Shown here: positions 18,306 to 23,389 of the stretch, piece by piece
Layout of the letters: the number at the start of each line of letters is the position of its first letter
Position numbering within the stretch: position 1 is the first letter of the stretch
Source of the DNA: a virus
Taxonomy: Duplodnaviria > Caudoviricetes
Strand: one strand, 5' to 3'
DNA: 64,000 bases
Virus record (IMG/VR): IMGVR_UViG_3300021255_001361
Span: 776-64,775 of that record
Made by a program: the position numbers and the translations under genes
Notes under the pieces: model-generated
What the model was told of the DNA's origin: nothing
The model's input: only the letters and a program-made list of their open reading frames with translations
The model's database searches: none

Positions 18306-18515
18306 TTAAAATAATTTATTACTCTTGCACTCCTGTACAAACATATTATCAAATATAGCCATAAGTACATCGACTACAATACTGTTTCCAGCTTGTTTAT
18401 ACTTTTGTGTGTTACTTACTGTAAGTTTCTCATAGTCCTCATCTTTAACTCCCATAAGTCTAAAACATTCTTTTGGTGTTAATTTTCTAATCCTATACTG
18501 TATCTCATTATTCAT
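18306..18515 (-). CDS. C5 cytosine methyltransferase C-terminal peptide (motifs IX-X)
   Basis: YRIRKLTPKECFRLMG...YKQAGNSIVVDVL; has its own AGGAG RBS. Confidence 0.85.
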   Translation of the reverse strand: MNNEIQYRIRKLTPKECFRLMGVKDEDYEKLTVSNTQKYKQAGNSIVVDVLMAIFDNMFVQECKSNKLF

Positions 18516-18535
18516 ATCAATATCACTCCTATTCT

Positions 18536-19036
18536 CTATTGTAATTTTCCTTCATCGTTACGAACTATACGAATTGCACTTGCCTCTAACACATAATTAT
18601 CCTTTTGAACTGTTGATAATGTATTTGCTATGTGATCAGATTGTATTTCAAGTCGTTGTTCAAGATTTTTTGATAATCTGTCACTTGGGTTATCTGGGTC
18701 TCTACCCACACTCCGTACTATTAAAGGTTCAATTTCCTTTAATTCTGAATAAACTTCTAACAACATTGATGTACTGGTAACTGTAGTTAGTGCGTTAGCA
18801 ACATCTTCATTAGACAATTCTAATTTCTGTTCATACTTATTTTCTACAGAATCCCTACCTCTAATTGCAGCTGGTTTGACCTCTTTTATCAAAATTTTCA
18901 CCTCTCCATCCGTATGATAACAGGGTATTGTGGGTGATATATATAAGGGGTCATAGACACGATTACTCTGGTCATAATTGTATATATGAATTGAACCTAA
19001 ACAGTTACATCTTGTAGCAGTTGTGTCACATTTCAA
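18536..19036 (-). CDS. C5 methyltransferase variable-region (TRD-like) modules
   Basis: Repeated units QSNRVYD..ISPTI, AIRGR..EQKLE..ANALTT, SVGR..EQRLE..ANTLSTVQKDNYVLE. Confidence 0.7.
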   Translation of the reverse strand: MKCDTTATRCNCLGSIHIYNYDQSNRVYDPLYISPTIPCYHTDGEVKILIKEVKPAAIRGRDSVENKYEQKLELSNEDVANALTTVTSTSMLLEVYSELKEIEPLIVRSVGRDPDNPSDRLSKNLEQRLEIQSDHIANTLSTVQKDNYVLEASAIRIVRNDEGKLQ

Positions 19037-19315
19037 TTAAATCATCCCCCCTTCCACTTCCTATAAGTACCTTTGGTTCTAAATTTCCACCTCCACAACA
19101 GTTAAGTGTTGGGGCTAAACCTTTATTGGAATATACAACATTACTTTGATGTGTACCTGTACCGCCATCTATATAACCTAAAATAAGAGCGTTATCACTT
19201 CTGGCTAACAAAGTACGACATAATTTACCAGTACCATCAAATATTCCATCTTGAAATTTATCAGATTTACCATAGTATATACTTCCCACAAATATGCACT
19301 CTCTCTCTCTGCCAT
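19026..19315 (-). CDS. TRD-like module, out of frame with its ATG at the (AG)6 tract
   Basis: AGAGGA RBS and ATG at 19315, then (AG)6 at 19299-19310; downstream frame RTLLAR..HQSNVVYSNKGLAPTL..EPKVLI. Confidence 0.65.
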
Positions 19316-19317
19316 AT

Positions 19318-19470
19318 TTACTGTTCCTCTAATATATAACTATCTGCGTAACCATGTCCTCCAGCTAATAAAGTTTTAGACACACCATCTACACTTATCA
19401 CTTCGGAAGATTGACTACTTGATAGTCTACCATAACTTATAACGACTGATGTGCTTATTTCATCTGACAT
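19318..19470 (-). CDS. TRD-like module (50 aa, MSDEIST...SKTLLAGGHGYADSYILEEQ)
   Basis: Hand-translated; GGAG RBS 7 nt upstream; overlaps the previous module. Confidence 0.6.
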   Translation of the reverse strand: MSDEISTSVVISYGRLSSSQSSEVISVDGVSKTLLAGGHGYADSYILEEQ

Positions 19471-19603
19471 TCTAAAACTCCATTTATTGTATCATACCCT
19501 GTTCCAGGACCTTTATAATCCCTTGCACATAAAGTTTTGGTTGTTTCTTTATTTACATTGTCAATGAACTTTAGATTAAATTGAATAGGTACTCTCTCTC
19601 TCT
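19455..19603 (-). CDS. TRD-like module without its own start (RERVPIQF...TLCARDYKGPGT...GVLECQMK)
   Basis: Hand-translated; TLxARDYKG motif typical of phage C5 MTase variable regions; begins at (AG)6 19592-19603. Confidence 0.6.
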
Positions 19604-19612
19604 GCCAATTTT

Positions 19613-19651
19613 CCCATCTGATTTAATGTCAGATGGGTTATTCAGTTTGGG
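19613..19651 (-). promoter_or_regulatory. Putative -1 programmed ribosomal frameshift cassette
   Basis: In-frame heptamer C_CCA_AAC (19651-19645), 7-nt spacer beginning with the TGA stop, 9-bp stem CCCATCTGA/TCAGATGGG. Confidence 0.65.
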
Positions 19652-20352
19652 AGTTGACCACTTACAATCAATTTATCTATAAGTTCCTGTGCTTTTTCGG
19701 AATTGATATAATACTTTTCATCTACATCAGTTTCCAACACATCTTTAAGTCTTTTATCTAACACCTTTGGTTTTGGAAACTCAAACACTTTATTCTCTGA
19801 TCTTAAAATACTAACCATGAAACATCTTTCTCTGTTCTGTGGTACTCCATAATCTTTTGCGTTAAGTAATTTATACTGATTATTATAACCTAACTTTGTA
19901 AGAAATGAAGTCCATTCTGAAAACAATTTAAGATTATCATTACTGATTACCTGTGGCACGTTCTCCATCAGTAAATACTGTGGGAGTTCTTTACATTCAG
20001 TAAGTATTCTCTCAACTTCCCACAACAAACTTGATGAAGTACCACTCTCTCTCTGCATGCCCTTACGTTTTCCGGCCACCGATAAATCGGTACAAGGAAA
20101 CGAATATGTCATAAGGTATTTGTAATTCTGGGTGTCTGTAATATTTATATCGTCTGCGTGAACATTCTTCACATCTGATACTTCAAAGTTAGTTCCATGA
20201 ATTTCATTGTATGACTGCATGGCATACTTATCAAATTCACATACAAACCAATGTTCCATAGGTACACCCAAGTATTTTAAAGCTAATGCCTGTGATCCAT
20301 ACCCGGCAAATAACTCTATAAGTCTTATAGGATTTTTAAACTTATAACTCAT
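19642..20352 (-). CDS. dcm: C5 cytosine methyltransferase catalytic core (motifs I-VIII)
   Basis: LIELFAGYG (I), FPCTDLS (IV), LLMENV (VI), GVPQNRERCF (VIII); motifs IX-X absent. Confidence 0.9.
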   Translation of the reverse strand: MSYKFKNPIRLIELFAGYGSQALALKYLGVPMEHWFVCEFDKYAMQSYNEIHGTNFEVSDVKNVHADDINITDTQNYKYLMTYSFPCTDLSVAGKRKGMQRESGTSSSLLWEVERILTECKELPQYLLMENVPQVISNDNLKLFSEWTSFLTKLGYNNQYKLLNAKDYGVPQNRERCFMVSILRSENKVFEFPKPKVLDKRLKDVLETDVDEKYYINSEKAQELIDKLIVSGQLPN

Positions 20353-21356
20353 TCTATTACCACCTTTTCACCATACCACGCTTTTGTTATCTCAACATCA
20401 CAGCCTATCGGCATTTCAAGTATCTTTTCAGCCGCCTTACTCATTGTTTCTGCTAATAACTTTGCACACTCTTTAACATTCTCCTCTGGACATTCTGCTA
20501 TGACTTCATCATGTACAGGGATAAGAAGTCTGAAACCTAATTCTTTAAGTCTCTGATTATTATTAAGTTCTATCATAGCAAGTTTAGTTAAATCTGCTGC
20601 CGATCCTTGAATCCGGGCGTTTACACATTGTCTTGAAGCATCTGCTATCTTTGCCCCATTATCTACTATCCATATACCTTCTTCATTTGCCTTTTCAAAG
20701 ATTTTCTTCTTCTCACCAAACTTACATTTATGTAATTGAGTAAGATATTTTCTGATAGTTCTTTCTGGTATTTCTTGCTCTACCTCATCATCAAAGTCTA
20801 ACACATCATTATCAGGTGCAACTCCATTCTTCCACTTAAACTCATACTCTTCAAGCTGTAAATCTGGAAGTCTGCGCTTTCTACCGCATACAGTTGTTAC
20901 ATATCCTGTTTCGTATGCCATATCAAGACTTTCATCTTCAAATTTCTTTATAGCTGGAAAACCTTTAAACACACTATCTTTGATTGCCTGTGCTTTCTCT
21001 GGTGTGCATTTAAGCTGTTCAGCTATGCTATTTACTCCTCTGCCATACAGCACACCTAACAGAATACTCTTCGCTTGTGTTCTTCTTTCTTTACCAGCTT
21101 TGTTTGTAGAACCGTCTGGGTTAAACTCTCGACACTCTTCATAAGGTTTATTGAAGGCTTTACTTGCAATCTCTGAATACAAGTCTTTACCTTGCATAAA
21201 TGTATTATACATCTGACTATCACCGTCTTTTCTACAAAGTGCCGCTAAAGAACGGGGTTCTTGTTGTGAATAGTCACTTGACATAAGAACATACCCTGGA
21301 CTTGCTATAAACATCTTTCGTATATCTTTATTGTGTGATGGAATGTTCTGTAAATT
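20349..21356 (-). CDS. polA: Family A DNA polymerase, exon 2 (polymerase motifs A, B, C)
   Basis: NLQNIP, SSDYSQQEPR, RTQAKSILLGVLYG, VHDEV. Confidence 0.93.
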   Translation of the reverse strand, partial: NLQNIPSHNKDIRKMFIASPGYVLMSSDYSQQEPRSLAALCRKDGDSQMYNTFMQGKDLYSEIASKAFNKPYEECREFNPDGSTNKAGKERRTQAKSILLGVLYGRGVNSIAEQLKCTPEKAQAIKDSVFKGFPAIKKFEDESLDMAYETGYVTTVCGRKRRLPDLQLEEYEFKWKNGVAPDNDVLDFDDEVEQEIPERTIRKYLTQLHKCKFGEKKKIFEKANEEGIWIVDNGAKIADASRQCVNARIQGSAADLTKLAMIELNNNQRLKELGFRLLIPVHDEVIAECPEENVKECAKLLAETMSKAAEKILEMPIGCDVEITKAWYGEKVVIE

Positions 21357-22102
21357 CAAATTGTTATCTTACAGGCTCTTTATCCTGTAATTCTAACACT
21401 TGTTGTTCGTGTTAGTTCAGACTATATCTCAAACTTTATCATAACTTTCAAAACGCCCATTAATTTTGTTTCTTCTGCGCTCTAAATCAACTTTGTGTTG
21501 TACTTTTTGATGATCTATTCGGTTAGTTAATTCCAAGTTTTCAAGTCTATTATCCAACTTATCTCCATTTATATGATGTACAATCTCATTAGGTTTTAGA
21601 GGTCTACCTAAATGGTTTTCCATTACTCGTCTGTGTAAAGCGTATCTCTCATTTACAGTTGATACATATACATATCCATCATATATGTATGTTCTATCTA
21701 ATCTGCCATTACCTCTACGCTTTAAACCCAATTTACAGGCTTTATGTAGAATTGCAGATTGACTTTTATTAAGATAGTTTGCACATTTTTTAACACCTAA
21801 TACTGAATAATTCTCAACTAACCATTTTACATCATCTTGTGTCCACCATTTATACATAAATATCACCTCGCTTTCACAAGGAATATTTTATCATAACTTG
21901 GTATGTTTTGTAAAGTTATATTATAAAGTCAACGGGCACTCGTGTTCCTTTTATTATTTGTGCTATTCAAGGATTAGTCGTTGCACCTTTTACCTACTTT
22001 TATGCACTTCGGTAACTTGGCACAGGATCAGCATTTCAGCTTTCCCTGTTTTCACCCGTTTACGCATTTAGTAACTCACGCTACTAACGCCCAATTTACT
22101 TT
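21357..22102 (-). mobile_element. Group I intron (746 nt) in polA
   Basis: 5' exon ends in U, intron ends in G; R CAACGACUA and S GAGAUAUAGUC give P7 (21975-79/21420-24); P9 hairpin 21369-21390; splicing restores SSQDP|NLQNIP in frame. Confidence 0.9.
21429..21857 (-). CDS. Intron-encoded HNH homing endonuclease
   Basis: LHRRVMENHLGRPLKPNEIVHHINGDKLDNRLENL; lies between R and S (P8 loop). Confidence 0.9.
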   Translation of the reverse strand: MYKWWTQDDVKWLVENYSVLGVKKCANYLNKSQSAILHKACKLGLKRRGNGRLDRTYIYDGYVYVSTVNERYALHRRVMENHLGRPLKPNEIVHHINGDKLDNRLENLELTNRIDHQKVQHKVDLERRRNKINGRFESYDKV

Positions 22103-23389
22103 AGGGTCTTGGCTTGACATTCTTCCTGTTACTGCACCATACTGTCTAAAATTACAATGTATTCTTCCGTCATTAGGATTTACACAGCTTGGTAGTTTAT
22201 CAATATAGGTGCTTATCAGCTTCTCAATTTCTCTGTAATCTATAAGTGCTTTGGACAACGGTGTATCCCACTTTAACAGTATATCTCCACCTGTTCCTCT
22301 TGGTGCTTTCTTATCAACTACTTCATATCCAAGAATATCATAAAACAGAATTGCAAGCTGTGTCGGACTTGCTATATTGATAGGATTATCAAGTTTACAG
22401 TCTGTATGCTTCAATCTGTAGCTTTCAATCTTGTCATTAAACTCACTCAAACGCTCATAGAACGCATTTAATTTATCTTTTAATATATTATTATATCTTT
22501 CAGATAAAACTTGATTATAAGTCAAATCAAGAAGTATTCCATTATCTTCCATATCAGCTACTACTGATATACAAGGCATTTCTATATTCTTAAATACCCA
22601 ATACAGATTTCGCATATCTTCTCTATCGCTGTCTGATCGTAAATACTTTTTCTGGTACTCATAATACTCATAAGTAATTACAGGGTCATGTGCGGCATAA
22701 AGTACAGCAGTCTGTAATGGCACCATTGTAAATGGTATTCCCTTGAATAACTCTTCAAACGTAAACTCATCTTCTTTACCATTAAGTACATACTTCTGGT
22801 GGAGTTTTTTAAGTGCATTGTTTGGTTCATTTTCATTAAGCAATCTTGCGGCTAAATAACAATCCCAAGTGCAGTATATGTCTTTAAGTCCAACTCTGCT
22901 ACGCATAAATCTCATATCAAACTTGGCATTAAACATTACTATTTCTATCTTACTTTGTATTAATCGGTCAAAGTGCTGTTTAATTACATCTACTGATAAC
23001 TGATTTGGTATAGGCATATTAGTTATGTATGATACATGATTAATCGGTATGTATGCACCTTGTCTGTTTGGTGTATAGATACATATACCAGCTATTTCAT
23101 CCTGTAAAGGGTCAAGCCCTGTTGTTTCTGTATCTATACTAATTACACCATTTTTAATTGCACCATCAATATATTCAATTAAGTCATTTTCCTCTGTAAT
23201 GACTAAATAAGAATCTTTGAATTTACCAAGATGTAACTCTACCAACTTCTGCGCTTGGGTTATTCTATCAAGTAAGCTGTTCCCACCTCTTACAGTAGGA
23301 ACAGCTTTTCTTGTGGAATTAGACTGCTTTGCTAACTTCATATCGTTAGCCTTACTATTTGTTCTTGTAGGTAAATCAAATAGTGGCAT
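22103..23389 (-). CDS. polA: Family A DNA polymerase, exon 1 (3'-5' exonuclease and thumb)
   Basis: IDTETTGL (ExoI), FNAKFD (ExoII), YAAHD (ExoIII), AVTGRMSSQDP. Confidence 0.93.

Follow-up and report, generated by a model that had tools for sequence, protein, structure and literature searches.

How does a ribosome pass from the catalytic core of a phage C5 DNA methyltransferase to the first of its target recognition domains (TRDs) when the two are written in different reading frames? The question is raised by a gene on the minus strand of the window, by which we mean the whole stretch of 64,000 nucleotides analysed (positions 776 to 64,775 of IMGVR_UViG_3300021255_001361, an IMG/VR phage record of 64.8 kb estimated to be 94% complete). 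The open reading frame (ORF) of the core, with motifs I-VIII, ends in ...SGQLPN, and its final codons read CTC CCA AAC TGA. The initial annotation had recognized in the last two sense codons an in-frame slippery heptamer, C_CCA_AAC, followed by a 7-nt spacer that starts with the stop codon and by a perfect 9-bp hairpin with a 7-nt loop, and had noted that the -1 frame stays open for 24 codons, into the first of two (AG)6 tracts; each of these features is where it was said to be (coordinates in Table 1). The arms of the hairpin are CCCATCTGA (19637-19629) and TCAGATGGG (19621-19613). Comparison with related loci leads us to propose that the heptamer, the adjoining stop, the spacer and the hairpin very probably constitute a genuine and conserved signal for programmed -1 ribosomal frameshifting (PRF), placed at the boundary between the core and the first TRD (TRD1). 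A gap separates the end of the core frame (19642) from the point at which the TRD1 frame becomes open (19622); a direct single shift from the one to the other is impossible here, and TRD1 can be reached from the core only by way of the -1 frame, through the heptamer and then the (AG)6 tract.

The comparison rests on 12 loci, that is, the window and 11 relatives, found in IMG/VR (L003) and in ENA and Logan assemblies (L086-L095), whose cores are 75-81% identical. At least 14 homologous cores (75-82% identical) recovered by protein search end in G(Q/T/E)LPN. At the DNA level, CT CCCAAAC is followed directly by T(G/A)A in all 11 relatives for which DNA is available. CTC CCA AAC is invariant in the 12 loci, while the adjacent conserved Tyr, Ile, Leu and Gly codons are each represented by two to five synonymous codons; the third-position entropy is zero over the last three codons of the core and 0.4-1.8 bits at the neighbouring ones. 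CTC makes up only 7% of the Leu codons in these genes, and the chance of such codon invariance, counted for seven lineages, is about 4e-13. Thus, since the three codons are invariant while their neighbours vary synonymously, CTC CCA AAC is under selection at the level of the nucleotides and not of the amino acids. A megablast of the locus against deposited phages gave no match, a more distant search yielded only Dulem virus 39, an exact-pattern scan of IMG/VR for the junction returned L003 again together with three chance matches outside any methyltransferase, and the 15 loci found in a metagenome scan included no new junction (L096 being L092, and L099 being L003). L003 itself carries two consecutive in-frame stops within motif I of the core (FAGY-stop-stop-GSQALAL, L003:4037-4045), in a gene that otherwise looks intact.

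The hairpin is conserved in position but not in sequence. A closed hairpin of -10.5 to -21.2 kcal/mol lies 5-8 nt after the heptamer in 11 of the 12 loci (10 of the 11 relatives and the window), against a background median of -3.3 kcal/mol at 698 random positions, and 3.4% of random positions in these loci have, at a spacing of 4-9 nt, a closed hairpin as stable as that of the window. The stems are of at least seven unrelated sequences, including CCCATCTGA, CCACTCATACC, CACTCTGTTC, CCCAACTAATGT, TCCCCTT, ATCCCCGC and GCCCCAC. Within a trio that aligns without gaps (L088, L091 and L092) one pair covaries as AU, UA and CG, the two positions being the third bases of a Pro and a Val codon, and three further pairs of the stem show one-sided changes that keep the pairing, a small sample. 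Pairing is also retained through G-U pairs. A comparable hairpin is found at the equivalent place in 5.7% of 53 non-redundant relatives that lack the heptamer, compared with 11 of the 12 that have it (Fisher p = 4.6e-9). No Rfam family matches the region 19400-19800. An alignment of related phage enzymes had been proposed in the initial annotation as a check on the conservation of the heptamer and on compensatory changes in the stem; both are found, the former in all 12 loci and the latter in the trio just described.

The -1 frame behind the heptamer is a coding frame. It is open for at least 37 codons in all 11 relatives (in L091 up to the end of the contig), and in ten of them, all but L091, it reaches a TRD of the type ...TL(M/C/A/Q)ARDYKG...N(G/A)V. 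In the relatives this frame is under purifying selection, with a ratio of nonsynonymous to synonymous substitution rates (dN/dS) of 0.09-0.40 at a dS of at least 0.8; for the TRD1 of the window, which reads VPIQ...TLCARDYKG...NGVLECQMK (19592-19458), the proportion of nonsynonymous differences is below that of synonymous differences against every relative compared. The -1 frame opens 1-17 codons before the heptamer. In L090 the overlap between the 0 and -1 frames is just 10 nt, ACTCCCAAAC, which pins the site of the shift to the heptamer. In L089 (L089:3195-3936) one -1 shift at the heptamer is predicted to yield a complete methyltransferase, with the core, two TRDs and motifs IX-X. An overlapping -1 ORF that is under selection and has no start of its own is found in all 11 relatives, but as regards the window only with the (AG)5 allele described below.

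Two other routes past the stop codon were considered and rejected. Read-through of the TGA would soon end at a second 0-frame stop, which in the window comes within 20 codons and in L003, L087 and L088 within one or two, and transcriptional slippage is ruled out by the only run at the site being A3.

In the mechanism that we propose, the majority of ribosomes would stop at the TGA and release the bare core, while a minority, stalled by the hairpin with tRNA-Pro (on CCA) in the P site and tRNA-Asn (on AAC) in the A site, would move one base backwards onto CCC AAA and read on in the -1 frame. A stop codon that abuts the heptamer may add to the ribosomal pause. In the relatives and in the (AG)5 allele the slip would produce a core-TRD1 fusion, and in L089 the complete enzyme including motifs IX-X; in the window, where the (AG)n tract is expanded by one unit, it would produce the core with a 24-residue tail, an OFF state. 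The re-pairing in the A site, from AAC to AAA, is near-cognate and departs from the rule of cognate re-pairing that goes with high efficiency in bacteria; this predicts a low efficiency and does not exclude membership in the -1 PRF class. Motifs of the type X_XXA_AAC are weak in E. coli, yet bacterial insertion sequence (IS) elements use them for PRF (PMC4066793). The extended form is probably a minor product, made as a low and fixed fraction.

Judged by its layout, the cassette is of the canonical -1 PRF design seen in dnaX (tau/gamma), in the transposases of the IS1 and IS3 families and in the phage tail chaperones G/GT, all of which combine an X_XXY_YYZ heptamer with a 5-8 nt spacer and a stem-loop and give two products with a common N-terminus at a set ratio, as proposed here. 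The initial annotation had classed it in the same way (heptamer, 5-9 nt spacer, stem-loop), and the spacers of 7 nt in the window and 5-8 nt in 11 of the 12 loci agree with this. The heptamer belongs to the X_XXA_AAC class that is in use in IS elements (A_AAA_AAC, G_GGA_AAC; PMC4066793), and, as proposed for the phage methyltransferase, the long form of G/GT adds a functional domain at the C-terminus. The differences lie in the host gene, a C5 DNA methyltransferase, in the added part, a TRD, in the 0-frame stop that abuts the heptamer, and in the presence in this genome, 41 nt downstream of the heptamer, of a hypermutable (AG)n tract that would gate how far a shifted ribosome can go. Our literature search for frameshifting in a DNA methyltransferase found no report, in agreement with what the initial annotation had stated: the 'methyltransferases' of the PRFect paper concern the erm leader, an rRNA methyltransferase matter, in the GeneTack survey methyltransferases come up solely in connection with phase variation and translational coupling, and the Atkins 2016 review, in the part consulted, names no example but TRM140 of yeast, which modifies tRNA as a methyltransferase.

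What the -1 frame leads to in the window depends on the first (AG)n tract. With six units TRD1 is out of the -1 frame, so that the predicted product of frameshifting here is the core plus a 24-residue tail only; removing one AG unit gives PKLNNPSDIKSDGKIGRERVPIQF...TLCARDYKG...ECQMK, that is, core-TRD1, and the predicted trans-frame peptide of this (AG)5 allele is LIVSGQLPNLNNPSDIK. The suggestion in the initial annotation that the phage makes both a bare and an extended core is therefore supported, with a correction for this genome: the cassette is conserved in relatives, but in the window itself the extension ends as a short tail, the (AG)6 tract breaking the frame before the TRD. The tracts are polymorphic. 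We compared their lengths in assembled contigs of four gut-metagenome runs, X1-X4 (for tract 1 the X3 contig gives no information, as it breaks off within the tract). For X1, the probable source of the record, an independent assembly reproduces (AG)6 at both tracts. Tract 1 is exactly 2 nt shorter, (AG)5, in X2 (a 4.7-kb goat-gut contig, about 99% identical where aligned) and in X4, from the same study, and tract 2 is likewise 2 nt shorter, (AG)5, in X2, X3 and X4, runs that come from two other studies. (AG)5 restores both reading frames, and in L094 the homologue of tract 2 reads ATGGC(AG)5TAC and is in frame. As far as the frames allow one to predict, both tracts of the window are of the OFF length, and the ON length is found in close relatives; core-TRD1, the biologically meaningful product, is predicted only for the (AG)5 allele and the relatives. 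Relative to the window, the X2 contig is also shorter by 100 nt at 19034-19133 (across the end of ORF C) and by 3 nt at 19487, and it has an additional GAT at 18504, so that the TRD array is polymorphic by larger indels as well.

Simple repeats are a general feature of these arrays. Across the 64 kb, (AG)6 occurs just twice and G6 once, in each case within this gene, and in the family the density of simple repeats is 20-fold higher in TRD regions (0.56 per kb) than elsewhere (0.027 per kb). Between identical flanks, for example TTTATGATGT-Gn-TGTAGTCCAA (L017-L061 and others), the poly-G tracts of TRD modules vary from contig to contig as G7, G8 and G9, and they reach G11 in L002 (L002:4856, L002:4991). 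In 48 more distant relatives (among L006-L080) the core-to-TRD junction is occupied by (GAGCA)3-15 or (GACA)5-17, for example at L009:4717, L020:4705 and L038:4715; read in the frame of the core, these repeats lead to a stop after 0-3 codons, to a TRD of the ARYDCGIS type, or to a different TRD through an overlapping frame, and the number of repeats would act as a three-way switch. On this reading of the frames, the junction is a frame-selection point throughout the family, implemented translationally in the clade of the window. In some relatives another gene, located some 2 kb upstream of the methyltransferase, has (GACA)7-10 repeats as well (L030:2294, L032:2306, L060:2082).

The rest of the array is organized differently from the core-TRD1 boundary. 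Motifs I-VIII and IX-X are both encoded, yet on separate ORFs and frames 1.1 kb apart and so not as a single polypeptide, and the same split is seen in most relatives. Between them we count at least six TRD-like segments (T-L/P-T-L motifs, ends in ...VLE or KVLV), assigned by eye and by homology among the loci; Pfam has no TRD model. Nearly all of the later modules have an ATG of their own, 1-56 nt before the preceding stop, and a purine-rich leader (18306-19470 in the window; L003 and L086-L095), and the overlap by 13 nt seen at ORF B recurs in L092, L093 and L095. The direction of the shift at the later junctions is mixed, +1 and -1. Because of these mixed directions, and since the later modules have their own ATG and Shine-Dalgarno (SD) sequence, they are best described as coupled cistrons and not as recoding sites, and a chain of PRF events through all modules was rejected. 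Frame breaks are confined to the ends of modules. The free-standing TRD peptides downstream of TRD1 are 50-110 residues long and are putative subunits, with motifs IX-X on the last ORF. At the junction between ORF D (...NDEGKLQ-stop) and ORF E, at 18536-18550, a -1 shift would be needed; this junction overlaps a run GGAAAAT, and the GGAG and ATG of ORF E lie 23 nt downstream. In most relatives a single ORF holds the equivalent TRD together with motifs IX-X.

Table 1. Features of the methyltransferase locus, in window coordinates
Feature	Position	Strand	Remarks
C5 DNA methyltransferase catalytic core ORF, 236 aa, motifs I-VIII	19642..20352	-	PF00145 E=5e-51, profile 2-209 of 324
Slippery heptamer C_CCA_AAC, read CCA AAC in the core frame	19645..19651	-	invariant in 12/12 loci
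0-frame stop TGA adjoining the heptamer; opens the 7-nt spacer TGAATAA (19644-19638)	19642..19644	-	TGA/TAA in all 12 loci
Putative stimulatory hairpin, 9 perfect bp, 7-nt loop CATTAAA, -12.9 kcal/mol	19613..19637	-	hairpins at like spacing in 10/11 relatives
-1 frame extension, PK + 24 codons (LNNPSDIKSDGKIGREREYLFNLI), TAA at 19573-19571	19571..19651	-	runs through (AG)6 at 19603-19592
(AG)6 tract 1, junction of the -1 frame and the TRD1 frame	19592..19603	-	(AG)5 would join them
TRD1 coding segment (VPIQFNLKFIDNVNKETTKTLCARDYKGPGTGYDTINGVLECQMK + TAA), without ATG/GTG/TTG start	19455..19592	-	homologue of the TRD to which the -1 frame leads in relatives
ORF B, free-standing TRD-like cistron (SKTLLAGGHG)	19318..19470	-	ATG 13 nt before the TRD1 stop, GGAG upstream
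ATG GC + (AG)6 tract 2 (19310-19299), start of the next TRD cistron	19299..19315	-	with (AG)5 the ATG and ORF C share a frame
ORF C, TRD-like module (APTLNCCGGGNLEPKVLI)	19026..19289	-	listed from GTG; with (AG)5 the start would be ATG 19315
ORF D, 166 aa, three TRD-like segments	18536..19036	-	TTG start behind G6 run
ORF E, 69 aa, motifs IX-X, own GGAG + ATG	18306..18515	-	PF00145 E=2.6e-12, profile 271-322 of 324

At 20349-23389 the gene of a family A DNA polymerase is divided into two parts, 22076-23389 and 20349-21359, which are separated by an HNH-type ORF (21429-21866). In the relatives polA is intact or is interrupted by a GIY-YIG ORF (L087) or an HNH ORF (L093), which suggests mobile introns or inteins with different homing endonucleases.

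Several observations weigh against the interpretation of the junction as a working PRF signal. The 12 loci are mutually related and amount to fewer than 12 independent observations. The efficiency of the shift may be a few percent or less, given that AAC-to-AAA re-pairing is poorly tolerated in E. coli (PMC4066793). In L093 the heptamer is present and no obvious hairpin follows it. The fusion would, in most loci, consist of the core and TRD1 without motifs IX-X, and its activity would need an IX-X partner made separately. In the window the -1 product would be a short tail without a TRD, and the signal may serve no current purpose there. Finally, in L089 the 3' arm of the hairpin, AGAGGGGA, resembles an SD sequence and stands 7 nt before an in-frame ATG, at which gene callers start an ORF, so that independent initiation may coexist with the fusion.

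The last of these points is also part of the case for the alternative that survives best, although we regard it as unlikely, namely that no frameshifting takes place: the core and the TRD would be distinct subunits like those of M.AquI, produced through termination and re-initiation, with the hairpin tuning the coupling only, in that it masks a start site up to the moment when a terminating ribosome melts it. All later modules of the array are indeed coupled cistrons with their own ATG and SD, and C5 methyltransferases made of two polypeptides exist (M.AquI and M.EcoHK31I; PMC3404938). Yet in the lineage of the window there is no ATG, GTG or TTG ahead of the TRD, in either the -1 frame or TRD1, and in the other loci the first ATG is far downstream or inconsistently placed. 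Nor would re-initiation account for the invariance of CTC CCA AAC at the nucleotide level, or for a -1 frame that in all 12 loci is already open ahead of the heptamer.

A feature acting in DNA is distinctly less probable. The conserved 12-mer and the inverted repeat (site CTCCCAAAC) could then be a junction for recombination and module exchange, or the binding site of a protein, at which TRD cassettes are exchanged behind a common core; the sequence past the heptamer is highly mosaic, with differing linkers and sets of TRDs, the core of P0001, 97% identical, reads on in frame into another TRD immediately ahead of this position, and the same junction is the place of the hypervariable repeats in the 48 relatives. 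The inverted repeats, however, are wholly different between loci and therefore cannot be the binding site of one protein; the G-U pairs by which pairing is kept count for an RNA structure but not for one in DNA; the spacing and the relations between frames match those of PRF exactly; and no recombinase gene is linked to the locus.

That the junction is a fixed, inactivating frameshift in a decaying gene, with the heptamer and the hairpin there by coincidence, seems highly improbable. The gene of the window is broken at several places, its two (AG)6 tracts are out of frame and TRD arrays are fragmented in many relatives, but decay would not be expected to leave a junction that persists across cores 18-26% divergent, with synonymous sites saturated, followed by a frame under purifying selection (dN/dS as above) and by a hairpin that covaries, or to spare the inside of every module while breaking frames at their ends. 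Least credible of all is the possibility, raised in the initial annotation, that the hairpin acts only as a transcription terminator, or as an RNA-processing site that ends the core message, since, stable and placed directly after the stop codon as it is, the stem is followed by a T-run in none of the loci, a scan of 19300-19900 on both strands gave no terminator-like site, and coding sequence under selection runs through and past it.

If the junction is a PRF signal, what would the two products be for? It seems plausible that they have different partners or specificities: the bare core could work with a separate IX-X subunit and other TRDs, while the fusion would commit the core to TRD1, because C5 enzymes of two polypeptides and the complementation of fragments are documented (PMC3404938). 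M.AquI and M.EcoHK31I are likewise split in or next to the variable region, with I-VIII and IX-X on different polypeptides (PMC3404938), but they consist of two fixed subunits and involve no recoding, whereas there are at least five pieces here, with a PRF signal and simple-sequence repeats. In phasevarions (Type III mod, Type I hsdS), as here, the length of simple repeats within the gene sets the frame (PMC3711429), and in our case tract lengths vary between near-identical genomes; the differences are that this is a Type II-like C5 enzyme of a phage, that the repeats would switch single TRD modules or choose between TRDs in overlapping frames in place of turning the whole enzyme on and off, and that in the clade of the window the repeat would act in series with a translational frameshift. 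Among deposited phages the nearest enzyme is that of Dulem virus 39 (PP511791.1), which has a core 60% identical and is a single multi-TRD ORF of 527 residues. The multispecific C5 methyltransferases of the Bacillus phages SPR, phi3T, rho11s and SPbeta have a core with tandem TRDs between motifs VIII and IX, an arrangement that the gene of the window presumably shares. Unlike in those enzymes and in Dulem virus 39, the array here is not one polypeptide: the first TRD would be reached by frameshifting, the later TRDs are overlapping cistrons and motifs IX-X stand on the final ORF.

A broader proposal, which we put forward tentatively and consider rather doubtful, is that the junction is a dedicated node of frame selection. 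PRF would set the ratio of bare core to core-TRD1 in the clade of the window, the (GAGCA)n and (GACA)n repeats of sister clades would choose heritably between the core only, the core with one TRD and the core with another that is read through an overlapping frame, (AG)n and poly-G tracts would toggle the TRD cistrons, and the bare core would assemble with free TRD peptides and the IX-X subunit, giving a combinatorial and bet-hedged repertoire of methylation. In that event, the phage would balance escape from restriction-modification against avoidance of methylation-dependent restriction.

In any event, gene callers split these genes into 'hypothetical' fragments, and the annotations of a common family of gut phages miss the real architecture of the enzyme. 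If ribosomes do shift at the heptamer, this would be the first recoding signal described in a DNA methyltransferase and a phylogenetically supported addition to the few conserved families of phage -1 PRF beyond tail chaperones and IS elements. Translation would then set the share of the catalytic core that is tied to one recognition domain and the share that remains free, and the hypermutable repeat behind the signal would switch that option genetically, linking recoding with phase-variable epigenetic specificity, fields that are usually separate. This suggests a route by which gut phages may diversify their anti-restriction methylation patterns.
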